64,000 nucleotides of DNA from Acutalibacteraceae bacterium (lineage in GTDB: Bacteria > Bacillota > Clostridia > Oscillospirales > Acutalibacteraceae). Positions 13,602-34,141 of the stretch are shown one piece after another. A program made the translations under genes and the position numbers. How positions within the stretch are numbered: position 1 is the first letter of the stretch; each line of letters starts with the position of its first letter. Below the pieces are notes generated by a model. That model saw only the letters and a program-made list of their open reading frames with translations, ran no database searches and was not told the DNA's origin. The DNA lies in NCBI GenBank assembly GCA_045628495.1, contig JAZQPL010000072.1, positions 41,118 through 105,117 of the forward strand, given 5' to 3'.

Positions 13602-13852
13602 TTTTCTCACCTGTTACATTATAATTGCTTTTGTAGGCTCAGTCAACTTAAAGAATATGCCGAAAAATAATAAAAATTTTTTTCACAGCTATTGACTTTA
13701 CTGCTTGATTTATGTTAGGATAAGGTACAAGTCTAATAATGTCAATGTGTATAGGTGCGCCCTTTTTTAGTTTTACTGTTTTTTACACAGTAAATTGCGT
13801 ACTGCACAAAATATACAATTAAACTTAGTCCACATAACAGAGAGGGTTGCTT

Positions 13853-14596
13853 ATGGAACAGAAAAAGAAAACCGGAACAGGCGGAAAGCTCAGAGCAATA
13901 GAGCTTGAATACCAGCCGGTGTTTGATATCCATCTCAATATGGCAATTGATTATGAAATATCTATGAGAATAAACGACAGGGTTATGGGTGTTATGCTTC
14001 AGGATTTGTTTATTCCCATTGCAGAAAAATCAAATCAGATTTGCCAGCTGGGTCTTTGGGCAATCGAAGAGTGCTGTGAAGCTATTAAGCGCTGCGAAGC
14101 AAGAGAGGCAGACATAAATTCCTGCATAGTATGGATTTCTATTAAACATATCGCAAAGAAGAACTTTGTTCCGTCTGTTATGAAAATCCTTAATAAATAT
14201 GATGTTAAGCCTGAAAGATTTTGCTTCAACATAAATGAAAGCATTCTTGAAGCTGTGAAAGATCAGGTTTTTGATAATTTCACTCAGCTGAGAGAGCTCG
14301 GGTTTAAGATATCTATTGACGATTTAGGACTTGAATATACATCACTGAGCAATCTCAGCCATTATGATGTGGATTATTTCGGTATTCATTCATCCCTTAT
14401 TGAGGACATTATGGAAAGCGAAAAAACCCAGAATATGATTCAGGGACTTATTGATTTCTGCAAGAAGATTGAAGTCGAAACAAGAGTTGGCGGAGTTGAT
14501 ACTCAGGAAAAGGCGGATCTTCTTAAGAAAATGGGTGTTGACCAGCTTAAAGGTCCGTTTTACGGAAAACCGATTTCAGAAAAATCAATAGTATAA
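13853..14596 (+). CDS. stand-alone EAL-domain protein, apparently degenerate
   Basis: EAL-fold landmarks are present (LEYQPVF, FIPIAE, NINES, SIDDLGLEYTSL, KGPFYGKP). Several catalytic positions look substituted in my by-eye alignment (see findings). AGAGGG lies 6 nt before ATG 13853. The stop is 18 nt before the next gene. Confidence 0.65.
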   Translation: MEQKKKTGTGGKLRAIELEYQPVFDIHLNMAIDYEISMRINDRVMGVMLQDLFIPIAEKSNQICQLGLWAIEECCEAIKRCEAREADINSCIVWISIKHIAKKNFVPSVMKILNKYDVKPERFCFNINESILEAVKDQVFDNFTQLRELGFKISIDDLGLEYTSLSNLSHYDVDYFGIHSSLIEDIMESEKTQNMIQGLIDFCKKIEVETRVGGVDTQEKADLLKKMGVDQLKGPFYGKPISEKSIV

Positions 14597-14614: not shown

Positions 14615-15388
14615 TTGGCTAAAAAAAATAAAGCTGCTGTCGGCGGTCAGCCGTCAAATCCCGAAATGAGCAACAGCGACCAGATGGGCAGGTATTCTGT
14701 TAAGACAAACTCAAAAAAAGTTAATAAGCGTGAAGCTTTAATCAGAGTGCTTACCATTATTCTTATAATTTTATTGCTTTTCCTTTTTGGCTTATTTGCC
14801 TGCACTTCATATATCAAAGGCGGTAATTTTACAGTTACAACAAGTAATGAAGCTTTTAATGCAGGTATCGCTTTGAGCGAAACAAAAGATTTCAATTCTC
14901 CCCAGAGAATACTTGAAGGAAGTAAATTTGAGGAGATGAGAGAAGGTACATATCCGCTTATTCCGCAGGATATCGATAAATACGACGGTTCCAAGAATTT
15001 CAAAGAAAACGGAATGTACTATTTCACATATTCATTTTATGTTAAAAACACCGGAGAAGATGACGCAGGCTATTCGGCAAAAATCAACATAGACAGCGTT
15101 ACCGAAGGTGCTGACGAAGCTCTTCGAGTTATGGTAATCAGAGACGGCGAAAGAACAACTTTTGCAAAGCCGAAAATGGGTACCAACAATGTTCTTGAAG
15201 AATTCGCTGATAAAAATTTCAAGAGTAACCGTCTTGTTTCAACGGTTACAAATGAAAAATTCAAAGCAGGCGACATAGAAAAACTTACAGTTGTTGTCTG
15301 GTTTGAAGGAGAAGATCCCGAGTGTGTTAATGATATTCTTGAAGGAGAGGTCAAGCTTTCAATGGATTTCAACATCTATGAACCTTGA
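14615..15388 (+). CDS. type-II membrane-anchored member of the locus' fibre-subunit family (basic N-tail, one TM, TasA-like ectodomain)
   Basis: TTG start preceded by AAGGGAG. TM helix is LIRVLTIILIILLLFLFGLFA. The C-terminal strand LTVVVWFEGEDPECVND matches VRVYIWVEGNDIDCQN and VRVYIWAEGNDVDCRD of the next two genes. It has no AWF cleavage-type motif. Confidence 0.5.
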   Translation: MAKKNKAAVGGQPSNPEMSNSDQMGRYSVKTNSKKVNKREALIRVLTIILIILLLFLFGLFACTSYIKGGNFTVTTSNEAFNAGIALSETKDFNSPQRILEGSKFEEMREGTYPLIPQDIDKYDGSKNFKENGMYYFTYSFYVKNTGEDDAGYSAKINIDSVTEGADEALRVMVIRDGERTTFAKPKMGTNNVLEEFADKNFKSNRLVSTVTNEKFKAGDIEKLTVVVWFEGEDPECVNDILEGEVKLSMDFNIYEP

Positions 15389-15555: not shown

Positions 15556-16509
15556 ATGAAAAAGACAATCAAAAAACGCGCTTTTGTATCTGCGATTGCT
15601 ATGCTTATTGTTTCAGCTATCGTTCTTACATCATCGACATTTGCATGGTTTTCAATGAGTAAAGTTGCAACTGTTGATAGCATGGAACTTAATGTTTCAT
15701 CACCTGAAGGCGTTCAGATTTCAGCAAACGCAAATGCATGGACAGCAAATCTTACTTCTGATGATTTGTTCAATGCAAAATCAACAAGTCGTTATAAGGC
15801 TTATGAGAACAATATCAACCTTTTAGCGTCAACACTTGTTCCTGTTTCATCTTGCTTTAACTATTTCACAAACGGTTTCCCGAATTTCTTTAAAGCAACT
15901 CTTGATGATAAAAAATATGCAACAGTAACAGCAGTTAATCAGGTTGCCGGAGCAGCTGACAGTGCAGGCCTTGTTGCATTTGACCTTTTCTTTAAGGTAG
16001 CACAGGAAACAAGAGTATATTTCTATGACAAGAACAACAAAGCTCAGGGTTCAACATTTACAGATACTTCAACATCCGGAATTCTTACAGCTCTCAGATG
16101 TGCATTCGTTCCTATGGGTACCACTCAGAGCTCAGTTGCAGCAGATGCTATTGCTCTTAAGAATTCAGATCGTAGTACTTGTATCCTCTTTGAACCTGAC
16201 GGAACAAACCGTTGCACCGAGTTAAAAGAAAAAGGTGCAGGTTCAGGATATGTTGCTACAAACGGTATTGCAAGTACGGGCGCAGCAGGTACAGTAAATG
16301 ATAGTTTTGTTCTTAACAACGGTGCTACCGAAGCACCCAGAGGTATTAAGGTTAACGAGACATCTTCAAGAACAGAAACATCTTTTGTACTTCCCGGCGG
16401 CGTTTCAAAGGTTAGAGTTTATATCTGGGTAGAAGGCAACGATATCGACTGCCAGAACTCAGTTGCAGGCTCAGTTCTTCAGGTAGCTCTTAAATTCACA
16501 ATTGATTAA
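15556..16509 (+). CDS. secreted protein with SipW-type signal peptide; putative TasA-superfamily major fibre subunit 1
   Basis: Strong RBS (GGAGGT). N-terminus is MKKTIKKRAFVSAIAMLIVSAIVLTSSTFAWFSMSK, comparable with TasA ..GGGTWAAFND and CalY ..GGGTFAYFSD. It aligns over its full length with the next gene and is followed by a GC-rich hairpin. Confidence 0.6.
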   Translation: MKKTIKKRAFVSAIAMLIVSAIVLTSSTFAWFSMSKVATVDSMELNVSSPEGVQISANANAWTANLTSDDLFNAKSTSRYKAYENNINLLASTLVPVSSCFNYFTNGFPNFFKATLDDKKYATVTAVNQVAGAADSAGLVAFDLFFKVAQETRVYFYDKNNKAQGSTFTDTSTSGILTALRCAFVPMGTTQSSVAADAIALKNSDRSTCILFEPDGTNRCTELKEKGAGSGYVATNGIASTGAAGTVNDSFVLNNGATEAPRGIKVNETSSRTETSFVLPGGVSKVRVYIWVEGNDIDCQNSVAGSVLQVALKFTID

Positions 16510-16638: not shown

Positions 16639-16664
16639 TGCATTTCCTCTCTCAGCTGTAAGGG

Positions 16665-16700
16665 TGATTTAAGAGTATATGCGATATACTTTTAATTGAC
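16665..16700 (+). promoter_or_regulatory. conserved AT-rich palindromic element, copy 1
   Basis: TGATTTAAGAGTATAT-gcga-TATACTTTTAATTGAC. It shares 16 + 11 + 4 identical positions with copy 2 at 17846-17882, and only the centre differs. Confidence 0.45.
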
Positions 16701-16832
16701 CTTTACAGTGAAAAAATAAGGTCAACCCAAAAAGAGAGCAGGTATTTTACAAAAGATACTTATTCCGGGTTACCGGCTAAGTATAAAGCGTTTTACGCAA
16801 ATCCGGCAAATTTTAGTAATGGAGATGAAGTC

Positions 16833-17774
16833 ATGAGAAGAAAAAGCAAAAAGCGTGCCTTTATAACCTCTATGGTTATGCTCCTCGTTTCTGCAATCGT
16901 TCTTACAAGTTCAACTTTTGCATGGTTCGTTATGGGCGATAAAGGCGTAATCGAAGAAATGGATGTTAAACTCTATGCTTCAGAAGGCTTCCAGATTTCT
17001 GCCAACGCTACTGACCCGAGCTGGAGACAGAACCTTACATTGGATAATCTTTTCAACACTGATGCTTCAACATCAGATGCTACTTATGATGCGTATGCAG
17101 GAAACAGAAATATGCTTCCCGAATATCTTATTCCCGCATCAAGCAGCTTTAATAACTTTGGTGATTACGGTTATCCTAATTTCTACTGTCTTAAAGTTGA
17201 TGCTGAAGGTGCAGTTGACGCAAGCAAAATCATAGAAGCATCAGGTAGTGCAGATGAAGCAGGAATCGTAGCATTCGATGTATTCTTCAAGTCCGGTGCG
17301 GCTCAGAAAATTGATTTCAGCAGCACAGAAGTTAAAGAAATCGGCGAAGAATCACAGAATGTACTTTCATGTATCAGATATGCATTTGTTCCTATGGGAA
17401 CAGTTGAAGAAGGTACAGAAGCAGCTACAATCCAGCAGCTCAGCAATGCAAGCGCTGCAAAGGTTGTAATTACAGAAGCTGATTCCAAGGGCCATTCTGT
17501 AGAAGGCGCAAAGAATCCTTCACAGGCTACAGTACCTGTTAACAGCACAGAAGTAGGCACTGCAGATACAGATATGTACATAGTTAAGAGCGGTACAGCA
17601 CTTCCCACCGGTACTGTTTACACAAGTGATGCAGCTAACAAGACATTTGAGCTTGGCGCAGGCATTACAAAGGTAAGAGTATATATTTGGGCAGAAGGTA
17701 ACGATGTTGACTGCCGTGACAGTATTTCAAGCTCTGAACTTTCAGTTGCTTTCAAATTCACAGTAGCTGACTAA
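16833..17774 (+). CDS. secreted protein with SipW-type signal peptide; putative TasA-superfamily major fibre subunit 2 (paralog of 15556-16509)
   Basis: N-terminus MRRKSKKRAFITSMVMLLVSAIVLTSSTFAWFVMGDK. Blocks shared with the paralog include GFQISANA, IVAFDVFFK, YAFVPMGT and KVRVYIWAEGNDVDC. Confidence 0.6.
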   Translation: MRRKSKKRAFITSMVMLLVSAIVLTSSTFAWFVMGDKGVIEEMDVKLYASEGFQISANATDPSWRQNLTLDNLFNTDASTSDATYDAYAGNRNMLPEYLIPASSSFNNFGDYGYPNFYCLKVDAEGAVDASKIIEASGSADEAGIVAFDVFFKSGAAQKIDFSSTEVKEIGEESQNVLSCIRYAFVPMGTVEEGTEAATIQQLSNASAAKVVITEADSKGHSVEGAKNPSQATVPVNSTEVGTADTDMYIVKSGTALPTGTVYTSDAANKTFELGAGITKVRVYIWAEGNDVDCRDSISSSELSVAFKFTVAD

Positions 17775-17882: not shown

Positions 17883-17923
17883 TTTTCGGTCAAAAGTTTT
17901 ACAAAATAAAGGTGGATACTATT

Positions 17924-18676
17924 ATGGAGAAAAAAGGCAAAAGCATACTCGGAGTTGTTTCGGATATTTTACTGATTATCATTTTAATTATTGCAATTAT
18001 GATAACGGTAATGACATTTACATCAAAAAACTCCGATACAGGATTGGGTAATTTGTTCGGATACATTCCGTTTTCTGTTCAGACTGATTCAATGAACCCC
18101 ACAATCAGAGAAGGCGATTTGATTATTTCAAAAGCTATAACCGTTGACGAAGCCCGTAACGGCGAAGTTCTCAAAGTCGGTGATGTAATTACTTATTCTG
18201 CAATTATTTCAAACGAAGACGGTACTGCACAGAGAGATTATAATACACATAGAATTGTAGATATCAAGCGTGGAAAAGACGGTAAGGTTGAATACTACTA
18301 CACAAAGGGTGACGGTGTAAGCACAGAAGATAGTTTCCCTATTGTACCTGACGAAGTTATTGCAAAGCAGGTTGGTGCTTCAGCCGATATAGGACCTGAT
18401 AAGAGTGCCGAAAACATTAAAAAAGGTTTCGGTATCAGCGGATTAGGTAAAGCTCTCGGTTTCCTTCAGACTCAGCTGGGATTTATGGTTTGCATAATTA
18501 TTCCTTTGGCCCTGTTCTTTATCTGGCAGGTATATAAACTTATTTCTATGTTTATGTCTGCTAAATCAGAGGATTCAACTGACGATATTAAGCGTAAGGC
18601 TATTGAAGAATATCTTGCTCAGCAGGAAGCAGAAAAGAAAAAAGCGGAAAATGATTCAAATTCCGATAAATCATAA
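17924..18676 (+). CDS. signal peptidase I, ER/archaeal (SipW) type, paralog 1, with C-terminal TM and charged tail
   Basis: N-terminal TM, then VQTDSMNPTIREGDLII (catalytic Ser), YNTHRIVDI (catalytic His of the Ser-His dyad) and TKGDG. AAAGGTGG lies 8 nt before ATG 17924. Confidence 0.75.
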   Translation: MEKKGKSILGVVSDILLIIILIIAIMITVMTFTSKNSDTGLGNLFGYIPFSVQTDSMNPTIREGDLIISKAITVDEARNGEVLKVGDVITYSAIISNEDGTAQRDYNTHRIVDIKRGKDGKVEYYYTKGDGVSTEDSFPIVPDEVIAKQVGASADIGPDKSAENIKKGFGISGLGKALGFLQTQLGFMVCIIIPLALFFIWQVYKLISMFMSAKSEDSTDDIKRKAIEEYLAQQEAEKKKAENDSNSDKS

Positions 18677-18721: not shown

Positions 18722-20269
18722 ATGACAGTAACAGCATTTATTTCAGAGTTCTTAAATCAGTTTTTTGTACAAGGCCTGTTCGGGATTTTCAAAGGAATCG
18801 GCATGGGAATATTCAATATGTTCAATATCCCCAGATATATTGATATATTTAAGAACAATTCAGAAAACTTTACAGCAACAGACTGGATTCTCGCAATTCT
18901 TACAGTAATTGCCACAATAGCTATTCTTGCAGTAATTGTAATTCTTGTTGTTGTTCTTGTTAAAAAATATCTGAGAGTTCGCAAGACTCTTGTTGACCAG
19001 GAAGAACTTCTTAACGAAGTTGCAAACCTTAACAGAGAAATTATCAAGCTTTCATCTGAAAAAGAAAGAATTCTTGCAATGAAAGTTTCTCAGCTTGGCT
19101 TGAAGCCCGGTGAAAGCCCCTTCGTTGAACAGGAAGAAAAAGACGAAGAAGAGAAGAAAGACGACGAAGTAGATATGACTGCAGACGATTACAGCCGTTT
19201 CTACAAATGTACACAGGTTGACCTCGAAATCGGCGATTATGTTGCCCCCGAGTTTGATAACGAAATTACTCTTCCCGAAATTTGCGACAGATTCCGCAAT
19301 TTCGCCTGCTCTCAGTTAGGTCTTTTCTATGAGCCGAAGCTTATCAGACTTTTCCTTTCAGCATTTGCTACAACAAGACTTATTATTTTACAGGGTATTT
19401 CCGGTACAGGTAAAACATCACTTGCTTATGCATGGGGTAAATTCCTTCGTAATCCCGCAACAATCGCATCAGTTCAGCCTTCCTGGCGTGACCGTACTGA
19501 AATTTTCGGTTATTTCAACGAATTTACAAAGCGTGTTAATGAAACAGAAGTTCTCAAGAAAATGTATGAAGCTACATATAAAGAAGAAATATTCATTACT
19601 GTTCTTGACGAAATGAACATTGCCCGTGTTGAGTATTACTTTGCAGAGCTTCTTTCAATTCTTGAAATGCCTACAAGAGATGAATGGGTTGTATCACTTG
19701 TTCCCAGCGTTTGGCCTACAGACCCCAAGCATCTGTTTGACGGAAAGCTCAGACTTCCTGAAAATATGTGGTACATCGGCACAATCAATAACGACGACTC
19801 AACATTCGCCGTATCAGATAAGGTTTATGACCGAGCTATTCCGATAGATATTAACAGTAAAGGTAAATTCTTTGAAGCTCCCTATACAGAATGGCTTCCT
19901 CTCAGCTACAAGCATCTTGAAGAAATGTTCAGAGAATGCCAGGAAATTCATAAGGTTTCAGAAGAAAACCTTCGCAAGCTTGAAGAACTTGATGACTATG
20001 TTATTGAACACTTCCGTCTTGCTTTCGGTAACCGTATTGTTAAGCAGCTTAAAGAATTTGTTCCTGCATATGTTGGATGCGGCGGAACTGAAATTGACGG
20101 TATTGACTTTGTTCTTTGCCATAAGATTCTCCGTAAATTTGAAAGCTTGAATCTTTCATTTATCCGTGACGAAATTGACGGACTTATTACATATCTTAAC
20201 AAACATTTCGGTAAATCAAACATGATGGAATCAAAAGAGTATCTCTTAAGACTCCAGAAGCTTATGTAA
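18722..20269 (+). CDS. membrane-anchored McrB-like AAA+ NTPase
   Basis: Hydrophobic N-terminus with a TM at aa ~54-80 (nt 18881-18961), followed by KKYLRVRK and then a coiled-coil/acidic linker. Walker A is LQGISGTGKTS (nt 19394-19417). Walker B and sensor are ITVLDEMNIARVEYYFAELLSILE (nt 19601 onward). IGTINNDDSTFAVSDKVYDRA matches the McrB-family GT(M/V)N..D.S...D.A..RR pattern. Confidence 0.65.
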   Translation: MTVTAFISEFLNQFFVQGLFGIFKGIGMGIFNMFNIPRYIDIFKNNSENFTATDWILAILTVIATIAILAVIVILVVVLVKKYLRVRKTLVDQEELLNEVANLNREIIKLSSEKERILAMKVSQLGLKPGESPFVEQEEKDEEEKKDDEVDMTADDYSRFYKCTQVDLEIGDYVAPEFDNEITLPEICDRFRNFACSQLGLFYEPKLIRLFLSAFATTRLIILQGISGTGKTSLAYAWGKFLRNPATIASVQPSWRDRTEIFGYFNEFTKRVNETEVLKKMYEATYKEEIFITVLDEMNIARVEYYFAELLSILEMPTRDEWVVSLVPSVWPTDPKHLFDGKLRLPENMWYIGTINNDDSTFAVSDKVYDRAIPIDINSKGKFFEAPYTEWLPLSYKHLEEMFRECQEIHKVSEENLRKLEELDDYVIEHFRLAFGNRIVKQLKEFVPAYVGCGGTEIDGIDFVLCHKILRKFESLNLSFIRDEIDGLITYLNKHFGKSNMMESKEYLLRLQKLM

Positions 20270-20311
20270 TTAGCTTTACTATCCCGATAAATCAATGCAA
20301 AGGGGCATAAG

Positions 20312-22471
20312 GTGCAGATGGATAAATCATATCTTGAATTATTTTTAGAATATAAAAACAGCATGGATGCTCTCACAACTGATAATCAGTTCTATGATAA
20401 TATGACTGATATCGTTGAAAGAGGTAAGTCAAATTATTCTTTGTTTAATCGCTATTTTGAGAAGAAAATTGACTTAACATGGGTTGAGGAAATCGAAGCG
20501 TGCATTATTCCGTTAGATAATATCATCCGTGTTCCCCGTAAATTTATTATTCAGGAAGAAGAAATTGTTCCTATTGAAAGAGCAAAGAAAATTACTGCTG
20601 AGTCAGTTCGCCATCTTGCACAGCATACAAATATGATTGCAAAAGTTGAGGGTGACGATGTTACACCCAACGAAATTCTTAATGTTTTCAGAGAAGAAAG
20701 CTTTGAGGTTTATGAAAATCGTTTTGTATTTACACTTATGCAAAACCTTATCAGATTTATTGATGTAAGATATAATGTTCTATTCAGTCTTTCAGATGAT
20801 GAAAATATGGCATCACTGAAAATGGAAAACGAAACATACCGTGGAAATGAAAAAATAACATATAAACTTGAAATTTCCGCTCAGTCAGGCGGTAATGATT
20901 TGGAGGATACCGCAAATATTGACGGTGAAAACGCATCTGCATTCCAGAGAATTGAGCGTATTAAAAAGATTATTAACGAATATGCTCATTCAGGATTTAT
21001 GAAAGAACTTCAAGGCTGCGTTCCCGTTCGTCCTCCGATTATGAGAACAAACGCTATCCAAAAAAATCCGAATTTCAGAGCATGTCTTAAACTGTGGCAG
21101 TTTATTCAGTCATACAGAGATGTCGGTTATGAAATTATCGCAAAAGAATCAAATGAAATGGTCAGCGATGAGTATAAAACAGAGCTTAACCGTATCATTG
21201 CCACAAACTATATGCTTCTTAAAAATAATTCAATATCGGAAGACTCATTGGGCAAGCGTGCTAAGATGAGAAAGCTTAAACCGAAGCTTCTTAAAAGACT
21301 CGCTGAAGAGCTTGTTTTGGATTATGATATGGAAGAGGTTGAGATTAAGCGCATTTTCGTCGATGAAGTTAAAAGAGTTTCCAAGCGTAAACTTGAAGGC
21401 GAAAAGAGAATTAAAGATGCTATTGACAGAGCTATTGCATCTGAAAACGCAAGAAAGAAAGCTATTGAAGATAAAATTAAAGCAAAAATTGCTCATGAAA
21501 AAGAGATGGAACGCCGTCGCATAGAGCGTGAAAAAGCAAGAATCGCAAGAGAGAAAGCTGCTGAGAAAGCTCGCAAAGAGAAAGAAAGAGCAAGACTCAA
21601 AGCTAAGAAAGAAAGAGAACTTGCACTTGCGAAAGAAAAAGCACGCAAAGAAAAAGAAAAGGCACGCCTTGCGAAGGAGAAAGCAGCAAAGCTTGCACAG
21701 ATTGCAAAAGAAAAAGAACAGGCAAGAATTGCTAAAGAAAAAGCCCGCAAAGAAAAAGAGCTGGCTCTCAAGCTTGAAAAAGAACGCAAAGCTAAAGAAA
21801 GAATTCGACTTGCCAAAGAAAAAGCTGCTCAGCTTGAAAGAGAACGCAGGGAAAAGGAAAAAGAAAAAGCCCGCCTTGCCAAAGAGAAAGCTGCTCAGCT
21901 TGAAAGAGAACGCAAGGAAAAGGAAAAAGAAAAAGCCCGCCTTGCCAAAGAGAAAGAAAGAGAGCGTCTTGCAGCTCAGAAAGCAGCTCAGCTTGAAAAA
22001 GAAAAGGCTGCAAGAGAAAGAGCGAAAGAAAAAGAACGCCTTGCTAAAGAGAAAGCTGCGCTTGCAGAAAAAGAAAGAGCTGCTAAAGCTAAGGCAAAAG
22101 AGAAAGAAAGAATTGCCGCTGAAAAAGCAAAACAGCTTGAAAGAGAAAAAATTGCAAAAGAAAAGGCAAGAGAAAAAGAACGCCTTGCTAAGGAAAAAGC
22201 CGCTCTTGCAGAAAAAGAGCGCATAGCTAAGGCAAAGGAAAAGGAAAAAGAAAGAATTGCCAGAGAAAAAGCAAAGCAGATTGAAAAAAATCGAATTGCT
22301 AAAGAAAAAGCAAAGGAAAAAGAACGCCTTGCTAAAGAAAGAGAAAAACAGCGTGAAAAAGAACGCATAGAAAAAGCAAAACAGCGTGAAAAAGATAAAA
22401 TAGCAAGAGAAAAAGCTGCTAAGGCAGCAAAAGCAAATGCTAAGAAATCAAATTCAGCAGAAGAACAGTAA
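20312..22471 (+). CDS. McrC-like N-terminal domain protein lacking a nuclease domain, fused to a long E/K/R-rich helical repeat region
   Basis: The first ~340 aa are globular. The helix FREESFEVYENRFVFTLMQNLIRFI resembles the conserved ..(D/E)T.(E/A)NR(F/I)(I/V)K..L motif I recall from McrC/DUF2357 N-domains. I see no PD-(D/E)xK motif. From aa ~355 to ~710 the sequence is almost only E, K, R and A with some L, I and Q. GTG start is preceded by AAAGGGG. Confidence 0.5.
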   Translation: MQMDKSYLELFLEYKNSMDALTTDNQFYDNMTDIVERGKSNYSLFNRYFEKKIDLTWVEEIEACIIPLDNIIRVPRKFIIQEEEIVPIERAKKITAESVRHLAQHTNMIAKVEGDDVTPNEILNVFREESFEVYENRFVFTLMQNLIRFIDVRYNVLFSLSDDENMASLKMENETYRGNEKITYKLEISAQSGGNDLEDTANIDGENASAFQRIERIKKIINEYAHSGFMKELQGCVPVRPPIMRTNAIQKNPNFRACLKLWQFIQSYRDVGYEIIAKESNEMVSDEYKTELNRIIATNYMLLKNNSISEDSLGKRAKMRKLKPKLLKRLAEELVLDYDMEEVEIKRIFVDEVKRVSKRKLEGEKRIKDAIDRAIASENARKKAIEDKIKAKIAHEKEMERRRIEREKARIAREKAAEKARKEKERARLKAKKERELALAKEKARKEKEKARLAKEKAAKLAQIAKEKEQARIAKEKARKEKELALKLEKERKAKERIRLAKEKAAQLERERREKEKEKARLAKEKAAQLERERKEKEKEKARLAKEKERERLAAQKAAQLEKEKAARERAKEKERLAKEKAALAEKERAAKAKAKEKERIAAEKAKQLEREKIAKEKAREKERLAKEKAALAEKERIAKAKEKEKERIAREKAKQIEKNRIAKEKAKEKERLAKEREKQREKERIEKAKQREKDKIAREKAAKAAKANAKKSNSAEEQ
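21374..22441 (+). repeat. purine-rich coding tandem-repeat tract (E/K/R/A repeats)
   Basis: A 66-bp unit at 21824-21889 is repeated at 21890-21955 with one mismatch (cagg/caag). A ~48-aa unit (AKEKERLAKEKAALAEKER.AKAK.KEKERIA.EKAKQ.E...IAKEK) recurs downstream. Low complexity creates spurious ORFs in other frames and on the opposite strand. Confidence 0.85.
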
Positions 22472-22510: not shown

Positions 22511-22539
22511 AGATTTGAACCGGCGTGGAGGTTATTAAG

Positions 22540-25500
22540 ATGAAGAAAAGATTTATTGAAAGGGTACTGGTATTGATGTTATCAATGGCAGTATTGTTAT
22601 CGTCAACAGGGGCATACTCTGCATTTGCAGTATCTAAAAACGGTTTTATGTCCTTTTCTGCAATTAAATCTTCATCATCTGCTGCAAAAAATGAGCAGGA
22701 GACCACGACTCCTGAGTCTGATTCTGTTGAACCTAATCTTGTAAGCGACGGCGGAACAGTTGAGGCTGTTAAGCTTAACGGAAAAGGTACTGCTGAAAAT
22801 CCTTATATTGTTTCAAATGCAGATGAATTATTTGCAATGCAGAGTGTTGCAAATGATTCAACCTCAGGCGATAAGTATTTTGTTCTTACTAAAGATATAG
22901 ATTTATCCGGTGTCAGCTATTCTGAAATGAATGACAATTCTGTTCTTCCGGGAACAATAGTTTCAGTTGATAAAGCAGTGTGCAATGCTGCTCCTGATGA
23001 AGCTAAATTTATACTTGAAGGCAACAATCATAAGATTTTCGGACTTAATATTACAAATAACGGTTCCTCGGCGGTGGGTATTTTCGGTTATATCAGCCCT
23101 AAATCAGTTATTAAAAATGTTGTATTCGAAGATATCAGTGTAAATGTTTCATACAGCGGTTCTGTTTCTTCATCAGTTATTGCCGTATGCAACAACGGTG
23201 AAATCAGCGGATGCACTGTTAAAAATGTTGCATTGAATATCAGCGCTTCAGCTAACGGCGGCGTTAGTTCCAAGACTGTAGGCAAGCTTAAAATTAAAAA
23301 TTCAACAGGACTTATCGGCAGAAATAACGGTAAAATCTGTGATATGGATATCAGCAAAGTAACTGTTGATATCAGTGCAGGCAAGGATACTATTGCTGTT
23401 GTTTCCGGTATGAATTCCGGTACAATATCAAATATTACAGTAAATAAATCATCTGTTAAGGCTGTTAAATCAGACAATATCGGCGGCGTTGCCGGTAAAA
23501 ACAGCGGTAAAATAGAGTCTGCAACAGTTAACGGAATAAAAATTAAGGTTGACAAAAAGGCAGTTTGCGGCGGTATTGTCGGTGAAAACTCGGGAATAAT
23601 TGATTCTTGTGTTGTTTCCGGCTCCGTTACCGGTTCATCATATTCAGGCGGAATAGCAGGTTATGCCGTTTCGGAAAGCAAGTCAACTGTAAAGAATTGC
23701 TATTCACTTGCAGGTGTTTCAGCTAATAATGAAACAGGTGCAGTTATAGCCGCAGGTAAATCAGTTACAAGCGGTAATGTCTGGTCATCGGATATCAGCG
23801 GTAGAATCATGGCTTATGAAAACGGTTCTGTTGACGGAAAGTTTAACCGTGAAAACAAGCTGATTGTTGTACGCAACGGCCAGAGTGAGATTTTAAGCAA
23901 AGCATCACTTTCAGGAAGCTTTGCAGGTTTAACATATTCTCTTGACACATCAAAGGATATAGCTTTTGACGGCGAAGGAATTACATTCAGTGAAGATGAA
24001 AACAGTATTGTGATTACCGCAGATTCCGCAGACAAAACCGGAAAAATAACATATACATCAAAAGTTTCAGTTCAGGCAGGATGTAACGGATTATCTGAAA
24101 TTGATGTTAAGTTTAATACAGTAGTGCTCACTGTTCCGGAAGGAACTGCAGGCGATGGACTTACAGAAGCATCAGCTCTTGAAATTAAAAACAGTGCAGA
24201 ACTTTCAATGATTAAGTCTGCTCCTTTTGCAAATTATATTCTTTCAAAAGATGTTACAATGTCTGAGTCCTGGGATTCCTCAATTTCATTTACAGGAACA
24301 TTGAACGGCAACGGTAACACAATCAAGGCAAGAAAAAATCTGTTTAAGTTTACTAACGGCAAAGTTTATAACCTTAATGTTGTTCTTTGCGCATCAATAA
24401 AAACTGCTGTGTTCGGCAATGCATATAATGCAAAGTTCTCAAAAGTAAAACTTTCTGCACAAAAGAGTGAAGATGGTTTTATCGGTCTTAAAACTGATAA
24501 GAGTAACACAGCAACATTTATAAATACTGCAAGAGGAAATATAACAATCAGCAACTGCTTTACAAGCGTGCCCGTAAATGTAAACGGCTCAGGACTTAAA
24601 AATATTGCAGGCTTTATTGCTGTGCTTGATACTGATAATGCAGTAATATCATCCAGCGGTTCTCTTACATCAATTACTGTTAAAGACGGTTGTAAGATTT
24701 CATCAAGTGCCGCATTTATCGCATCTGCCGACGGAAATAAGAATGGCAAAATCAATGATTGCTATGCAACACTCTATTCCGATGATGTTAAAAATATTCT
24801 TATTGCATCGGGAGACAGCAGTATTAAAATGACTGATTCAGTTTTCAGTTCATCATCATCAAAAGCTGTTGCCGCTCCGAAAAAATTTGTTAATATAGAA
24901 GGCAAAAAGTGGGCGTTTGAATCAGGCGAATTCGGCTTTGTTTCTGCAGAGGGAAGCGTTGTTTCAATAGCAATCCCCGTTAATGTAATAAAGGGCGCAA
25001 GTGCGGATGATTTCAAAGTAATGTTTGATTCGGAAGTGCTTAAGGTGAATTCCGAAAAGCTGACAGTTAAAGACAATGTTCTTAATATTCCCGTTGAGGC
25101 GGCAAAGCCCGGAGTTACAATTAAGAACAGTGCACTTGTTGTTACACATAAGGGAACGGGTCTCAGAGCAGAAATAAGTCTTTCAAACGGACTTGAAAAA
25201 GATAAAGACGGTAACTATATAATTAACTGCGGAGCAGATTTCCTGTTTATTAACAATGACTTTGACAATTTCTGTGATAAAAGCTTTATCCTTTCCGGAA
25301 ATATTGATATGTCAGGCATTGATTTTTCAACAATCGGCGGCGCTTCCGGTAAATTTACCGGAAAGCTGGACGGTAACGGATATACCGTTAAAGGTCTTAA
25401 AATCAACGGAACTGCTAAAGCAGGATTATTCGGAACTGTTGACGGTGCAAAAATAGTTAATATTTACTTTGAAGATGCGGTTGTTAATGCATCAAATGAT

Positions 25501-28500
25501 TACGCAGGTGTGCTTGCCGCTCAGATTACGGGAAATACAACAATTAAAGCGGTAAACTTCAAAAACTGCAGTGTAATCAGCACCGGTAATTATGCAGGTA
25601 TTGCAGCCGGCGAAACAGACGGCATAAAACTTTACGGAATTTCAGTGGAAAATTCATCTGTTAAGGCTCTTAATTATGCCGGATTTGTTGTAGGAAAAGC
25701 TGAAAATTCAGAAATTAAAAACATAAGTGCCAAAAATGTTAAAGCATCCGGCGAAAACAATATCGGACTTTTCGGCTGCACGGAAAATTCAAAGCTTGAA
25801 AAAATAGCTGTTAACAACGGCATTGTATCAGGCGGTAAATTTGTCGGAGGAATTTCAGGCTCGGCAGAAGAATCAGAAATATCAAATGTTAAAGTAAACG
25901 GTACAACGGTCAGCGCGGCTGCGGATGTTATGGCTTCTGCTCCTGTTGCAGGCGGTGTATGCGGTTTCTTAAGCGGAAAGCTCAACGGAGCAGTTGTTAA
26001 GTCACTTGAAGTGAAATCATCCGGCAGTTCTGCTGTTGCCGGCGGTGTTGCAGGTATAACAGAAAATGCCGAAATCAGCAACGCTGAGGTATATGGTGAT
26101 GTTAAAGTTTCAGCTTATGTTGTCGGCGGTATAATCGGCGAAGCTGAAAATAATACATCAGTTTATAATTCAAAATCACTTGCAGCTGTTTGTGGAAGCG
26201 ATACACAGTTAAGAGTTGTAACAGGCGCAGGCGGAGTTATCGGCCGTGTAAAGGCAGACGATTTTGCAACAGTTAAAATCAGCAAGGTTAATGTTTCTGG
26301 TAAAATTACCGCTGTTGATTCTGTGGGCGGAATTATCGGTTCGGTTATTTCCGAAAAAGCAGACGGTGTAAGCGTTAAAGATTGTGTATGTGCCGCAGAG
26401 ATAGTTGTTACATCAGATAACGGAATGAAAATATCCGGCTGCATAATAGGCAATGTAACAGAGCTTAAATCAGATGCTCTGGAAAAATCAGTTGAAGGTA
26501 TCGTATATTCTTCATACGGTTCAGGCCTTAATGCAATCGGCACAGCAGATGTTAAATCAGGATATTACGATGCTGATAAAGCTGTTAAAGCTGTGGTACC
26601 TGATTTAATTAAAACAAGAGCGGAAAATAAAATATCTGTTTCAACAGGAGATATTAAAAAATACGGTTTTGTATTTGACAGTGATAAAGGTTGGCAGTCT
26701 GAATCGGCAAAGAGAATCGTTGTTGTTGATTCTTCAGAGAATCAGGTTAAAATCAAGGCAGTAAGATCAGGCAATGTCGGAATAGCTGCGGAGTACAAAC
26801 TTTCTGCCGATAAAGATATAGTAATTAAGGTTCACTTTAATGTTAAATCTGAAATAGCAACAACTCTCAAAGGCGAAGGAACAAAATCAAATCCTTATGT
26901 AATCAATAATGCTTTTGATTTGGAAAATGTATCATATTATTCAGGCGAGAACAGTTGCTTTGTTTTGAATAACGATATTAAGTTCAGCGCAGATGCCTTT
27001 AAGTTCAGCGGAGATTTTTATAACGAAGGATGCGGATTTACTCCCATTGGTTCGAAAGAAAATCCGTTTAACGGAAAGTTTGACGGTAACGGTCATAAAA
27101 TAAGCGGACTGTGTGTTAACAGTGAAGACGGTGCGCTTTTCGGATATGCTTCGGATGCTGAAATTAAAAATGTTACTGTTGAAAAAGCAACAATAACAGG
27201 AAACAATTCTGCGGCGGCAGTAGTTGCCCGTCTTGTGGATTCTGAAATCACCAATGTATTTGTTACAGGATGCAATGTTGTTGCAACTGATGTTGAAGGA
27301 AGTGCTTCTGCGGTTGTTGCTTATGCAAAAAACAGTAAAATTGAAAATGTTAATGTAGAATCTGCAGAAATTACAGCTTGTCCTGCTGAATTTAAGGAAA
27401 AAAATGCAAGCGCAGGTGCAGTTTGTGCAAGAGTAACTGATGTTACTGTAAATAAAGTTACAGTTAACGGCGCAGATGTTGTTTCGAACGGTTTTGCAGG
27501 CGGATTTATAGGATATTGCGATAATGCGATTATCAGCAATTCAAAAACAGTTGCTGAAATCAAGGGCAATATTGCAGGCGCAGTTTCAGCGGATACTGCA
27601 GGAAAGCTTACAGCAGAAAATATTGTTGCAGGCGGAACGGTTTACGGTCATGAACTTGCGGCAGGTCTTTCAGCAAAATCTGATGCTCCTGTTGTATGTA
27701 AAAATGTAATTATCTCCGCTAAAGTAAAAGGTGAAGGCGTTTCCGCTGTTGTTACGGCGAAGGCAGATGAATCAATATTTACTGATTCTGCCGATAGTGA
27801 AGTTGTTCTTGAAAACATTGTTTATTCAAGTTATCAGAATAACCTCAAACCTTTCGGAGATAAAAAAATAAATATGTTCCAGAGCGCTGATTATGTCGGA
27901 AATGTTTACGATGCGAATGTTGCAGAAGTAAAAGAGGGCAATAGCCTTGTAATCGGAAAAGACAAGACAGATGTTTTCGGTTCAATTAAATCCGAATTCG
28001 ATTTCAGCAAGTTTGTTTGTGAAAATATTTACAGTGTTCCCGAAGGACTTGTGAAATATAATAAAGCAGATAATACGGTTACTGCAGCGGGCACAAATGT
28101 TGACGGCGCTCAGCTTGTTATCAGATTTGATAACGGCATTGAAATAGCAGTACCTATGGTAAGCGTTGTCGGACTTACAGGCAACGGTTCTGATGTTTCC
28201 CCGTTTGTTGTTAATTCTGAAGACACACTTAAACTTCTCAAGGTATATCCTGAATCAAACTTTAAGATGTCAGGTGATGTTGAACTTAAAAATGTCTGGA
28301 CTCCGGTTGAAAACTTCAGCGGAAAATTTGACGGAAACGGATACACAATATCAGGCCTTAATATTAAAGCGGACAATGCAGGTTTATTTAATACTGTTTC
28401 AGGAAAAGCGGTTATTAAGAATATATCCTTTACAGACGCAGTTATTGAAGGTAAAGCTTCAGCAGGTGTTCTTGCGGCAAATGTTTCGGAAGATGCGCAG

Positions 28501-30564
28501 ATAAGCGGCGTAAGTATAGGAGCATCAAGTGTTAAAGCAGATGAATATGCCGGTGCGGTTGCCGGAAATATTCAGTCAACAAATTCTGCAATCACATTAT
28601 GTTCGGTAACCAGCTGTGAAATTTCAGCAGATTATGCGGCAGGAATTGTCGGAATGGTTTCGGGCAAAGCGAGTGTAATAAGCTGTGAAGTAGAATCTTC
28701 TGAAATAAAAGGTGCTTTTGCGGCAGGTGCTGTTGCAGGATTGGCAAGTGCAGAGAAGTTTGAAGTTTTATCATGCAGCACTTCGGCTGATGTAACCGCT
28801 GAAAATGCAGGTGCTCTGATAGGCATAGAAGAAAAGAATGCCGTTATTGACAAATGCGCAACAAACGGTTTGGTTGCAGGTAAATATTCAGAGGGCGGCG
28901 TAATTGGTATTTCTGATGATACAGTAAGTATTAAAAATACAAAATCCTTTGCTTCTCTTTCAGGCAAAGCAAAACACAGCGCTGCATTGATTGGTATTTT
29001 TGCAGTTAAGCCTGAAGATAACGAAGCTTTCTCGGATTCATTCAGCTCAAATACTGTTTCTGGAGAGTTTGACGAGTTTGAACCGTCGGTTATGAAATAT
29101 CAGAATTTCGTTCCTGCAAACCGGGAAGAAATAAAGCCGCAGCTTAACGGTGAAGGCACAAAGGATAATCCGTACATTATTTCCTCAGCAAAGGATTTTG
29201 CTGAAATTCCGGATTCTTCAACAGCTTATTTCGAATTGGCTGATGATATTAAACTTTCAGCAAGCGATTACGGCGTTTCATACGATAAGAGCGGTAAAGC
29301 AGTTTACGGGGTTTTCAACAACGGATATAAACCGATTAAGAATTTTGCAGGTGTATTTGACGGAAAGGGTCATGTAATCAGCGGATTGTATATTGATTCA
29401 GAGTCTGATTATGTAGGTTTATTTGCAAATATCACTGCATCAGGTGTTGTTAAAAACCTTCATGTAGAAATTCTTGATAAGAGCGAAGGGCTCGGCTTTG
29501 ATTCCGTAACAGGCAGAAATTATGTTGGCGGTATTGCAGGTTACTGTGATTCGGTTAACGGTATTGAAAACTGCTCGGTTGTCGGCGGAAGCATAAACGG
29601 CAACAATACAGTCGGCGGAATAGCAGGCGGAATAGCAGGTTCCGAAATAATAAATTCAGTTGCGATTACTGAAATCAACGGCCAGAATAAATCAGGCGGT
29701 ATTGCAGGTACAACCACAGGAGAGTGTATTATTAAGAATTGCGCAGTATTGTGTGATGTTAATGCCGCAGGCGGAACTCTGGTTGGTGTTAATACAGGAA
29801 CGCTTTCCCTTACAGATGTATTTGCAAACGGTTGTTCATACGGTTTGGGAGCAGTTGCAGTAGAAACAAATAACGGAACAATAAATGCTCAGAATGTTCT
29901 TGTTTCAGGTGAGAACGATGCAGATAAATCATCTGTTCTTAAAGCTCAGAAAGCAGAGAATGTTTATTGCGACAGAACCTTGCTCAGAGCTTACGATGAT
30001 AATATCAAGCCTATGACAACAGAGACTCTTACTTCGTCAAAGCCTGACGGACTTGAAAGTTGGACTCAGGTTAAAGGAAGATATCCTGTTCCGGTTATGG
30101 CAGACAGTTATGCTAACGAAAAAGCAGCCCTTGCCGCTGTTCCCGGTGAAGCTAAACCTGTTGAAAAGGCAACCGGTAATGTTTCAGTAAGCTATAAGCT
30201 TTCCAACAAATCAGACGATGCAACATTGAATAATCAGGTTATCGGAATTCTTATGAAATCTGTTAACGGCAAGAAAATTGTAACTGAAGATTTCTTTACA
30301 AATTGCAGTTCTGATGAAGTTAAGTTAAATAAACTTCTTGTTACAACAGGAGGATTCTATATAGATTCTTCCTTGCCCCAGGGATTTAAAATTCAGGTTT
30401 CTGCAAAGGATTCTTACGGCAACAAGCTTGCAGTTAAAGATGCAGGAAGCGAAGGGCTTTATGTTGAATCAGGAAGAGCAGATAATGTAACTCTTTCAAT
30501 CGAAATTGTTAATACAGACATTCCATGGGGAGCTTACTCCCTGTGGGAGAGTCTTGCAAGATAA
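22540..30564 (+). CDS. giant (2674 aa) secreted GLUG-motif / beta-helix repeat protein, putative adhesin or fibre-associated protein
   Basis: GGAGG lies 8 nt before ATG 22540. Signal peptide is MKKRFIERVLVLMLSMAVLLSSTGAYSAFAVS. Six modules open with G.G(T/S)..(N/S)P(Y/F).(I/V)....(E/D/T/F)L, at about nt 22774, 24137, 25201, 26866, 28174 and 29143. Each continues with F(S/T/N/A)G.(F/L)DGNG(Y/H/N).I.GL and ..GLFG. Long runs of GG(I/V)(A/I/V)G units follow, as in IgA1-protease-type GLUG regions. No LPxTG, SLH, dockerin or C-terminal TM is present. Confidence 0.8.
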   Translation: MKKRFIERVLVLMLSMAVLLSSTGAYSAFAVSKNGFMSFSAIKSSSSAAKNEQETTTPESDSVEPNLVSDGGTVEAVKLNGKGTAENPYIVSNADELFAMQSVANDSTSGDKYFVLTKDIDLSGVSYSEMNDNSVLPGTIVSVDKAVCNAAPDEAKFILEGNNHKIFGLNITNNGSSAVGIFGYISPKSVIKNVVFEDISVNVSYSGSVSSSVIAVCNNGEISGCTVKNVALNISASANGGVSSKTVGKLKIKNSTGLIGRNNGKICDMDISKVTVDISAGKDTIAVVSGMNSGTISNITVNKSSVKAVKSDNIGGVAGKNSGKIESATVNGIKIKVDKKAVCGGIVGENSGIIDSCVVSGSVTGSSYSGGIAGYAVSESKSTVKNCYSLAGVSANNETGAVIAAGKSVTSGNVWSSDISGRIMAYENGSVDGKFNRENKLIVVRNGQSEILSKASLSGSFAGLTYSLDTSKDIAFDGEGITFSEDENSIVITADSADKTGKITYTSKVSVQAGCNGLSEIDVKFNTVVLTVPEGTAGDGLTEASALEIKNSAELSMIKSAPFANYILSKDVTMSESWDSSISFTGTLNGNGNTIKARKNLFKFTNGKVYNLNVVLCASIKTAVFGNAYNAKFSKVKLSAQKSEDGFIGLKTDKSNTATFINTARGNITISNCFTSVPVNVNGSGLKNIAGFIAVLDTDNAVISSSGSLTSITVKDGCKISSSAAFIASADGNKNGKINDCYATLYSDDVKNILIASGDSSIKMTDSVFSSSSSKAVAAPKKFVNIEGKKWAFESGEFGFVSAEGSVVSIAIPVNVIKGASADDFKVMFDSEVLKVNSEKLTVKDNVLNIPVEAAKPGVTIKNSALVVTHKGTGLRAEISLSNGLEKDKDGNYIINCGADFLFINNDFDNFCDKSFILSGNIDMSGIDFSTIGGASGKFTGKLDGNGYTVKGLKINGTAKAGLFGTVDGAKIVNIYFEDAVVNASNDYAGVLAAQITGNTTIKAVNFKNCSVISTGNYAGIAAGETDGIKLYGISVENSSVKALNYAGFVVGKAENSEIKNISAKNVKASGENNIGLFGCTENSKLEKIAVNNGIVSGGKFVGGISGSAEESEISNVKVNGTTVSAAADVMASAPVAGGVCGFLSGKLNGAVVKSLEVKSSGSSAVAGGVAGITENAEISNAEVYGDVKVSAYVVGGIIGEAENNTSVYNSKSLAAVCGSDTQLRVVTGAGGVIGRVKADDFATVKISKVNVSGKITAVDSVGGIIGSVISEKADGVSVKDCVCAAEIVVTSDNGMKISGCIIGNVTELKSDALEKSVEGIVYSSYGSGLNAIGTADVKSGYYDADKAVKAVVPDLIKTRAENKISVSTGDIKKYGFVFDSDKGWQSESAKRIVVVDSSENQVKIKAVRSGNVGIAAEYKLSADKDIVIKVHFNVKSEIATTLKGEGTKSNPYVINNAFDLENVSYYSGENSCFVLNNDIKFSADAFKFSGDFYNEGCGFTPIGSKENPFNGKFDGNGHKISGLCVNSEDGALFGYASDAEIKNVTVEKATITGNNSAAAVVARLVDSEITNVFVTGCNVVATDVEGSASAVVAYAKNSKIENVNVESAEITACPAEFKEKNASAGAVCARVTDVTVNKVTVNGADVVSNGFAGGFIGYCDNAIISNSKTVAEIKGNIAGAVSADTAGKLTAENIVAGGTVYGHELAAGLSAKSDAPVVCKNVIISAKVKGEGVSAVVTAKADESIFTDSADSEVVLENIVYSSYQNNLKPFGDKKINMFQSADYVGNVYDANVAEVKEGNSLVIGKDKTDVFGSIKSEFDFSKFVCENIYSVPEGLVKYNKADNTVTAAGTNVDGAQLVIRFDNGIEIAVPMVSVVGLTGNGSDVSPFVVNSEDTLKLLKVYPESNFKMSGDVELKNVWTPVENFSGKFDGNGYTISGLNIKADNAGLFNTVSGKAVIKNISFTDAVIEGKASAGVLAANVSEDAQISGVSIGASSVKADEYAGAVAGNIQSTNSAITLCSVTSCEISADYAAGIVGMVSGKASVISCEVESSEIKGAFAAGAVAGLASAEKFEVLSCSTSADVTAENAGALIGIEEKNAVIDKCATNGLVAGKYSEGGVIGISDDTVSIKNTKSFASLSGKAKHSAALIGIFAVKPEDNEAFSDSFSSNTVSGEFDEFEPSVMKYQNFVPANREEIKPQLNGEGTKDNPYIISSAKDFAEIPDSSTAYFELADDIKLSASDYGVSYDKSGKAVYGVFNNGYKPIKNFAGVFDGKGHVISGLYIDSESDYVGLFANITASGVVKNLHVEILDKSEGLGFDSVTGRNYVGGIAGYCDSVNGIENCSVVGGSINGNNTVGGIAGGIAGSEIINSVAITEINGQNKSGGIAGTTTGECIIKNCAVLCDVNAAGGTLVGVNTGTLSLTDVFANGCSYGLGAVAVETNNGTINAQNVLVSGENDADKSSVLKAQKAENVYCDRTLLRAYDDNIKPMTTETLTSSKPDGLESWTQVKGRYPVPVMADSYANEKAALAAVPGEAKPVEKATGNVSVSYKLSNKSDDATLNNQVIGILMKSVNGKKIVTEDFFTNCSSDEVKLNKLLVTTGGFYIDSSLPQGFKIQVSAKDSYGNKLAVKDAGSEGLYVESGRADNVTLSIEIVNTDIPWGAYSLWESLAR

Positions 30565-31170: not shown

Positions 31171-31175
31171 CTGAT

Positions 31176-32292: not shown

Positions 32293-32293
32293 T

Positions 32294-32959: not shown

Positions 32960-32962
32960 GTT

Positions 32963-34118: not shown

Positions 34119-34141
34119 GTTTAAGGGCAGGGTTGATTGAT

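Follow-up and report, generated by a model that had tools for sequence, protein, structure and literature searches.

Why would a relative of the restriction enzyme McrBC, with neither a DNA-reading nor a DNA-cutting part, be encoded inside an operon for a secreted pilus or fiber? The question is raised by a 64,000-nucleotide (nt) stretch of an Acutalibacteraceae genome (contig JAZQPL010000072.1; hereafter, the window), in which two adjacent plus-strand genes encode a 515-amino-acid (aa) AAA+ protein (protein A) and a 719-aa partner (protein B), flanked by genes for SipW-type signal peptidases and pilin-like proteins. An initial annotation had described the pair as a transmembrane (TM)-anchored, McrB-type nucleoside triphosphatase (NTPase) with a nuclease-free, McrC-type partner, and had offered two explanations for it, namely an exapted envelope-structure module or a defense module that had landed in the operon. 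Both open reading frames (ORFs) were present as described, together with the motifs quoted for A. Our analyses indicate that the pair is probably a nuclease-free McrB/McrC core of the class named CoCoPALM, which is built into a SipW-dependent pilus or fiber operon and would act in the assembly of the fiber.

Neither protein is the product of a chance ORF, as homologs of A number in the thousands, at 72-94% identity, and those of B in the hundreds. A sequence search of the PDB with A returned only McrB chains, namely 6ut6 and 7vsr (E=5e-7) and 6hz4 (1.2e-6), with neither MoxR nor any other AAA+ chain reaching E=1. Moreover, a profile of the A family aligned with Escherichia coli McrB in hhalign with 96.5% probability (E=8e-10), over a region spanning Walker A, Walker B, and the signature loop. 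The NCBIfam McrB model matched A with E=1.5e-7, its score lying far under the equivalog cutoff, as expected of a distant relative. Judged by these matches, the McrB homology of A is statistically real, in agreement with the initial annotation. A MoxR/RavA-type identity for A was rejected on the PDB matches and the hhalign comparison with E. coli McrB.

The McrB hallmarks of A comprise (i) the Walker A motif, (ii) a D-E-x-N-type Walker B motif, (iii) the N-x-D signature, and (iv) a trans-acting arginine (YDR371); further motifs are VLDEMNIARVEYYFAELLSILE at residues 294-315 and DKVYDRA at residues 366-372. Among relatives down to 32% identity, G225, G228, G230, K231, T232, D296, N299, N356, D358, S360, T361, and R371 are invariant, and E297 is nearly so. 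The invariance of the catalytic set (K231/T232, D296, N356, D358, and R371) argues that A is an active NTPase. Its signature has the form G-T-x-N-x-D-[D/E]-S-T, which a regular-expression search recovered in 131 of the 150 nearest representatives, and this form places A, by motif, in the NxD clade, a major branch of the McrB family with a shortened signature that is usually followed by E or D (PMC11090510).

The N-terminal part of A (residues 1-157) consists of an amphipathic segment, a TM helix, a coiled coil, and an acidic linker (residues 128-156). No DNA-binding family was matched in this region by our family scans, and the claim that A has no DNA-reading N-domain thereby stands. Residues 55-80 are the sole strong hydrophobic stretch of the protein (Kyte-Doolittle 19-residue maximum, 3.58), and one unbroken helix, residues 52-124 in an AlphaFold2 (AF2) model, spans both the TM segment and the coiled coil. 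FtsL-type models matched the N-terminus below threshold by HMMER (FtsL_2, E=0.0062, 16.9 bits versus a cutoff of 24.6; FtsL_Actino, E=0.0071). Residues 1-35 (18722-18826) are glycine-rich, amphipathic, and weakly hydrophobic (…QGLFGIFKGIGMGIFNMF…), and fall below the TM threshold. The corresponding segment is a clear first TM segment in many relatives, which suggests that the A N-terminus may form a TM hairpin with both termini in the cytoplasm; relatives of A often carry two TM segments per protomer.

We examined the relationships of the AAA+ part by an exhaustive HMMER search with A residues 150-515 only, which yielded 8093 cluster representatives at a threshold of E≤1e-3, of which 735 also passed E≤1e-30. 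The best 150 representatives were assigned to architecture classes, and the 137 with a complete core were classified for a tree. The closest ∼40 representatives (∼40% identity or more) have one or two N-terminal TM segments, as in A; a second group has four or five; and a third (51 of the 137) has the architecture of CoCoNuT proteins, without a TM segment and with an N-terminal region of 400-500 residues that is rich in E/K/R/Q. In a neighbor-joining tree that was restricted to the AAA+ core and had E. coli McrB as the outgroup, a crude test without bootstrap, 35 of the 37 proteins with one or two TM segments fell into a single clade of 36 that includes A, and the phylogeny called for in the initial annotation thus recovered the TM-anchored versions as one clade. 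The multi-TM NxD McrB-like GTPases (P0275-P0383; four or five predicted N-terminal TM segments; 43 of the 137) formed its sister clade, with one exception (42/43). A search of the relatives with long N-termini for Rosetta-stone fusions (for example, SipW-GTPase) found no Pfam domain.

Protein B (20312-22471, plus strand) begins after a 42-nt gap from the A stop codon, with an AAGGGG ribosome-binding site ahead of it, and has no hydrophobic segment. When B residues 1-363 were scanned, with the biased tail removed, Pfam DUF2357 (PF09823) matched residues 67-159 with E=1.1e-9 and 38.3 bits against a cutoff of 23.3. The same domain was matched in 24 of 30 B homologs, and homologs carry it in precomputed annotations, with the NCBI name "DUF2357 domain-containing protein". 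DUF2357 is the McrC N-terminal domain, which binds and activates McrB (PMC11090510). The McrC-like helix singled out in the initial annotation, EVYENRFVFTLMQNL, corresponds to B residues 132-146, lies inside the DUF2357 match, and holds the family-invariant residues Y134-E-N-R-F138. Full-length B had no match in Pfam, NCBIfam, or PADLOC, the lack of a Pfam match presumably being due to the biased tail. A PDB search with the single B N-domain sequence returned nothing, and one with the family profile returned only low-complexity matches from the tail. An AF2 model of the N-domain contains helices and a long beta hairpin at residues 164-193 (predicted local distance difference test score [pLDDT], 76.5; predicted template modeling score [pTM], 0.49), and these elements would fit the "helical bundle plus long beta stalk" seen in the solved McrC finger.

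Even at E up to 10, B residues 160-345 and the tail matched neither a nuclease nor any other effector family, and the family alignment has no invariant acidic residue in residues 160-345. Given the DUF2357 match and the lack of a nuclease match, B is a McrC-type finger protein without a nuclease, as had been proposed. A hidden, inactivated nuclease in residues 160-345 was also considered and was rejected, as there was no family match and there were no conserved acidic residues. The place of the nuclease is taken by a charged tail of 374 residues, composed of 25% K, 21% E, 21% A, and 13% R, with one Gly and no Pro. Its DNA consists of tandem repeats of 33, 66, 72, and 144 nt. Heptad periodicity is absent, and the tail may for this reason be a single alpha-helix instead of a true coiled coil. 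Among related loci, B is 367-381 aa long and tailless in 20 and 550-1057 aa long in 117, with tails of up to ∼700 residues; in one lineage (L081), the tail is an E/A/R-rich repeat with a different sequence. This variable tail is built from recent DNA tandem repeats.

The genomic context of the pair was compared in two sets of loci, which were largely retrieved by similarity to A and came mostly from Acutalibacteraceae genomes; the closest relatives of the window are metagenome-assembled genomes of gut Acutalibacteraceae (Oscillospirales). For the genome set, relatives of A were confirmed in 187 stretches of species-representative genomes, and 80 loci were taken. The second set, searched with our own hidden Markov models, comprised 164 loci, namely 84 chosen through relatives of A or through divergent B homologs and 80 from metagenomes, which reached down to 52% identity. 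In the latter set, a B-like gene followed A within 600 nt in 144 of 144 loci; SipW lay within a few kilobases of A, on the same strand, in 99 of 99; and pilin-like genes were nearby in 96 and a gene for an EAL-domain protein in 68 of the same 99. Furthermore, tblastn recovered the order EAL gene, pilin-like genes, SipW, A, B, and giant-protein gene in essentially every genome locus with enough flank. Loci with divergent B homologs (40% identity; L081 and L083) have the same operon, with a giant LRR_5 protein at its end instead. Within these loci, the A-B pairing is obligate, as is its link to SipW and the pilin-like genes, and the placement of the pair inside a secretion/fiber operon was thus borne out.

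The two proteins also stand out in their conservation. Across the genome loci, tblastn identities to the window proteins were 72-95% for A and 60-95% for the B N-domain, compared with 28-69% for SipW and 23-66% for the pilin-like genes. At locus L012, A is 90% identical, versus 70% for RNase Y, and the best nonidentical homolog of the pilin-like protein encoded at 15556 is 62% identical, versus 94-96% for A. Within the operon, no genes are conserved as strongly as A and B, which are more tightly constrained than the rest; this speaks for vertical inheritance of the pair and against a defense island. Such a fixed, conserved context is the opposite of the pattern of a mobile defense module. Between the two explanations in the initial annotation, the invariant A-B-SipW-pilin order, the top conservation of A and B, and the single TM-anchored clade favor an exapted envelope-structure module over a defense module that landed in the operon; the former explanation was strengthened, and the latter lost ground to the conserved order and the high conservation. 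Consistent with this, no nuclease fold was detected in B, A did not group with MoxR, and the pairs were not found in defense islands.

A class with this composition has already been named. In a survey of McrBC systems by Bell, Koonin, and colleagues, one paragraph, with no functional analysis, introduces CoCoPALM as an NxD GTPase fused to an FtsB-like TM and coiled-coil domain and associated with genes of the signal-peptidase family (pilus assembly); coiled coils are usual on the McrB and McrC homologs alike, and a follow-up paper is promised (Bell et al., eLife 2024; PMC11090510). The present locus shares the NxD McrB GTPase with an N-terminal TM segment and coiled coil, the DUF2357 partner with a long charged helix, and the SipW association. 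It differs in nothing essential; the FtsB homology of the A N-terminus is only subthreshold by HMMER, and the McrC homolog lacks the tail in 20 of 139 relatives here. Judged by architecture and context, the locus is a typical CoCoPALM member, of a class that is named and uncharacterized, and not a new kind of system, and its novelty is lowered by the naming of the class in 2024. We found no published follow-up on CoCoPALM and no other paper that ties McrB-like proteins to SipW/TasA systems; the portion of the supplementary files of Bell et al. 2024 that was accessible contained no mention of CoCoPALM, and the single paper naming both SipW and McrB has McrB only within an E. coli strain genotype. 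The conversion of a restriction motor into an envelope machine would be surprising biology, and it is testable, but the central observation has been published before.

Comparisons with better-known systems delimit the pair further. With canonical McrBC (E. coli and Thermococcus gammatolerans), it shares the AAA+ GTPase core, a finger-domain partner encoded downstream, and the tight two-gene layout. However, A lacks the DNA-binding N-domain and is membrane-anchored, B lacks the PD-(D/E)xK nuclease, the signature of A is NxD as opposed to the canonical NxxD, and the pair resides in a pilus operon and not beside restriction-modification genes. CoCoNuT systems (CnuB/CnuC) belong to the same NxD clade, with ∼37-43% identity in the AAA+ core and coiled coils on both homologs, and CoCoNuT McrC homologs often lack an active nuclease (PMC11090510). 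CoCoNuT GTPases, however, have a long soluble coiled-coil N-region without a TM segment and come with separate nucleases or HEPN genes, whereas A is TM-anchored, falls into another clade, and has no nuclease neighbor. SipW-TasA- and BsaA-type operons of Bacillus and Clostridium resemble the present one in placing SipW beside several small secreted paralogs with a …T-x-A-x-F… signal and in encoding a large surface protein. In contrast, the characterized tapA-sipW-tasA and sipW-bsaABC operons contain no NTPase (PMC11580942), whereas the present operon has A, and the pilin-like proteins here have their own C-terminal W-x-E-G-x-D-x-x-C motif.

Type IV pili (T4P) and archaella offer a parallel in working logic only. 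Their ATPases (PilB and FlaI) are hexameric cytoplasmic NTPases at the membrane, encoded by the most conserved gene of the pilus locus, while the pilins diverge fast. The folds are unrelated, AAA+ McrB in one case and the secretion-ATPase superfamily in the other; the subunits here are processed by SipW on the outer face of the membrane and not by a prepilin peptidase; and no PilC-like platform protein was identified here.

The pair most likely functions as a membrane-tethered module that is driven by GTP and that assembles or controls the SipW-dependent pilus. In characterized McrBC, the McrC finger resides in the McrB pore, activation proceeds through an Arg/Lys mechanism in which McrC acts like a GTPase-activating protein (GAP), and hydrolysis is sequential, with a possible rotation of the finger that is "reminiscent of F/V-type ATPases" (Niu et al. 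2020). Correspondingly, A would form an asymmetric hexameric ring under the cytoplasmic membrane, held by its TM helices, and the finger domain of B would enter the ring pore as a GTPase activator, a basic residue repositioning the signature loop to stimulate GTP hydrolysis. Sequential hydrolysis around the ring would then produce a stepping or rotary conformational cycle. The proposal is weakest in its last two steps, in which the cycle would pass through the coiled coil and TM segment of A to the membrane-embedded pilus machinery, and would there drive or gate subunit processing, extraction, and polymerization, together with export of the giant adhesin. Candidates for the coupling are the SipW paralogs, the pilin precursors with their signal anchors, and the anchored pilin-like product of the gene at 14615. 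The B tail might serve as a stiff spacer or scaffold, and the EAL protein of the operon might supply a cyclic di-GMP (c-di-GMP) input.

In its strongest form, the proposal describes a new pilus-biogenesis motor, in which the McrB-type ring is the stator and the McrC-type finger steps or rotates inside it, powering pilin extraction, processing, or polymerization and adhesin export; we regard this version as possible and doubtful. If true, the pilus motor would be an NTP-driven assembly machine that is unrelated to the PilB/secretion-ATPase superfamily and that evolved from a restriction enzyme, and at least some TasA-like/SipW fibers would be actively assembled from the cytoplasm. SipW-dependent (TasA-like) fibers are generally considered to assemble extracellularly without a dedicated cytoplasmic energy source, and the strictly conserved, membrane-anchored GTPase pair suggests an unrecognized active step, which would concern Acutalibacteraceae and their relatives among the gut Clostridia, a large group. 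The pair would also be a clear case of a restriction-enzyme motor reused for a non-defense function in the cell envelope. The invariant catalytic residues, tight operon, and simple two-protein core of the class make it directly testable.

Several results weigh against a module that acts on pilus assembly in this manner. TasA-type fibers assemble extracellularly by donor-strand exchange with no known cytoplasmic NTPase (PMC11580942), so that the need for a step that consumes energy is not established. The pilin-like proteins matched neither TasA/camelysin models nor solved structures. A exposes at most ∼20 residues outside the membrane, and any coupling would therefore have to occur within it. 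The AF2 model of full-length A is poor (pLDDT, 56.6; AAA+ core mostly <50; 22 homologs), and the alignment is too shallow (effective sequence number [Neff], 1.6). The model of the B N-domain had no significant structural neighbor, McrC included, in the PDB or BFVD (Foldseek). The hhalign comparison of the B family with E. coli McrC was not significant either, which does not contradict the DUF2357 match, given that Pfam places E. coli McrC in another family. Finally, the tail of B is missing in 20 of 139 relatives and is therefore not essential to the core mechanism.

Some of these points bear equally on the main rival explanation, that the pair is a regulatory GTPase switch and not a motor, serving as a membrane-localized timer or checkpoint for the time and place of the pilus, with a logic like that of FlhF/FlhG or FimX-PilB, perhaps downstream of c-di-GMP. 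We consider it rather unlikely. The GAP-like action of McrC on McrB (Niu et al. 2020) would suit a switch, as would the near absence of A from the outside of the cell, the dispensability of a cytoplasmic energy source in known TasA-type assembly, and the EAL gene that heads the operon in 68 of 99 loci, with motifs that look degenerate. However, A retains the complete catalytic set of a ring-type AAA+ protein, including the trans-acting Arg, which is typical of mechanoenzymes; its whole-protein conservation resembles that of pilus or flagellar motor ATPases; and neither A nor B showed a c-di-GMP-binding element. Quite improbable is the explanation that the pair is a pilus-linked immune module, in which a nuclease-free sensor derived from McrBC would guard the pilus, itself a likely phage receptor, and would trigger abortive infection or pilus shutdown on phage attack. 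In PADLOC, the AAA+ core of A best matches the candidate defense protein PDC-M26A (E=2.6e-36; best stretch, residues 199-316); its closest relatives without a membrane segment are CoCoNuT-like and have coiled coils in their N-terminal regions, the neighboring CoCoNuT clade has a defense role, and CoCoPALM itself is treated as a 'CoCoNuT-like system' (PMC11090510). However, B matches no PDC-M26 or other PADLOC partner model; no effector domain was detected in A, B, or the conserved neighbors; and family scans found no restriction-modification, methylase, mobile-element, or effector genes near the pair. Defense genes are usually patchy and fast-evolving, whereas here the gene order is fixed and, in loci retrieved via A, both A and B exceed the flanking genes and RNase Y in conservation. 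The absence of an effector and an evolution unlike that of defense genes make a pilus-guarding role less likely than a regulatory switch.

A membrane-anchored AAA+ ring with one or two TM segments per protomer, in an operon with four SipW paralogs and at least seven signal-anchored substrates, could also be an FtsH- or Bcs1-like extraction or quality-control machine, clearing SipW-type signal peptides or dislocating misinserted pilin precursors. However, in solved complexes the McrB pore is filled by McrC, which is hard to square with substrate threading, and our family scans found no protease or chaperone domain; we therefore rate this explanation as very improbable. Scarcely tenable, and largely refuted, is the suggestion that the McrBC resemblance is superficial, with A being unrelated to McrB (for example, of MoxR/RavA type) and B an unrelated coiled-coil protein. 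It could draw on the Pfam AAA_5 match of A, which at 19.5 bits lies just under the gathering cutoff of 22, and on the lack of a McrC-like Foldseek neighbor for B. Against it stand the identity of all three PDB matches of A as McrB, the 96.5% hhalign probability, the conserved McrB-specific N-x-D signature and DE-x-N Walker B of A, and the score of B above the DUF2357 gathering threshold.

The features of the operon are collected in Table 1.

Table 1. Coordinates of the pair and of the surrounding operon genes in the window
Feature	Position	Strand	Evidence or remark
Stand-alone EAL-domain protein, first operon gene	13847..14596	+	Pfam EAL, E=1.8e-46
Pilin-like protein with cytoplasmic N-tail and uncleaved-looking membrane anchor; candidate base/anchor subunit	14615..15388	+	C-terminal motif
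Pilin-like subunit with SipW-type signal peptide (…LTSSTFAWF…)	15556..16509	+	Signal motif; no Pfam, NCBIfam, or PDB family
Paralogous pilin-like subunit	16833..17774	+	40% identical to 15556 product, with which it shares signal and C-terminal motifs
SipW-type (archaeal-type) signal peptidase I, directly upstream of A	17912..18676	+	TIGR02228, 60.8 bits versus cutoff 51.85; NF046067, E=1.1e-18
Protein A, membrane-anchored McrB-family (NxD-clade) AAA+ GTPase homolog	18722..20269	+	515 aa; sequence and profile matches, tree
A transmembrane helix, residues 55-80, followed by KKYLRVRK	18884..18961	+	Kyte-Doolittle maximum
A coiled-coil segment, residues 89-127, FtsB/FtsL-like architecture	18986..19102	+	AF2 helix 52-124; FtsL matches subthreshold
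A Walker A, GISGTGKTS, residues 225-233	19394..19420	+	Conserved in relatives
A Walker B, VLDEMN	19601..19618	+	Aligned to IIDEIN of E. coli McrB
A McrB signature loop, GTINNDDST (N-x-D, then D), residues 353-361	19778..19804	+	Conserved in relatives
Protein B N-terminal region, residues 1-345, with DUF2357 domain at 20510-20788	20312..21346	+	Pfam; AF2 model
Protein B tail, residues 346-719, K/E/R/A-rich, repeat-built helical region	21347..22471	+	Composition; DNA tandem repeats
Giant secreted surface protein, 2679 aa, directly downstream of B	22525..30564	+	Signal peptide; Peptidase_M26_N-like repeats, E=1.7e-9
Second operon block: four pilin-like genes (30595, 32294, 33471, 34133) interleaved with three SipW paralogs (31176, 31783, 32963)	30595..34744	+	

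By eye, the motifs of the EAL protein are noncanonical, with EIS for EAL, DDLGLEY for DDFGTGY, and K for the catalytic N, and the protein may thus be a c-di-GMP receptor instead of an active phosphodiesterase. In T4P, the degenerate EAL protein FimX is a known regulator. Scanning the entire window against Rfam, with a c-di-GMP riboswitch among the targets, returned nothing.

The pilin-like genes comprise at least seven paralogs (14615-17774 and 30595-34744), six of which encode an N-terminal …T-[FYL]-A-[WM]-[FY]… SipW-type signal motif, and most of the proteins share a C-terminal V-x-[VI]-W-x-E-G-x-D-x-x-C motif. The family had no match in Pfam, NCBIfam, or the PDB, except that 1 of 15 sequences weakly matched TIGR04088 (SipW signal; E=0.002), and for want of a family match it looks like an undescribed subunit family. 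The protein encoded at 14615 ends in a V-V-W-F-E-G-E-D-P-E-C motif of the kind common to the family and is without the T-F-A-W-F signal motif; its gene is syntenic in the related loci with enough upstream flank. The first pilin gene with a signal peptide is followed by a 323-nt gap, which contains a strong G+C-rich hairpin at 16610-16638 (GAGGGCGG…CCGCCCTC). A terminator scan found no plus-strand terminator-like site between 13400 and 23000, and it missed this hairpin because no clean T-run follows it; as a partial terminator or stabilizer, the hairpin could lead to an excess of the major subunit.

The four SipW paralogs (17912-18676, 31176-31823, 31783-32292, and 32963-33484) each have a C-terminal TM segment and a short charged cytoplasmic tail, as seen in the one directly upstream of A, and three of them score above the TIGR02228 cutoff. 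Two of the paralogous genes, 31176 and 31783, share 41 nt (31783-31823). At its distal end (34766-36092), the operon encodes two further small membrane-anchored proteins of 272 and 172 aa, the first with a very lysine-rich cytoplasmic N-tail, and neither had a family match. The gene of the 2679-aa protein is syntenic in Acutalibacteraceae loci, and the only Pfam match of its product is the Peptidase_M26_N region. The signal peptide of this protein ends in …LLSSTGAYSAFAV; because this end resembles the pilin signal motif, the giant protein may be a SipW substrate too, perhaps a tip adhesin.

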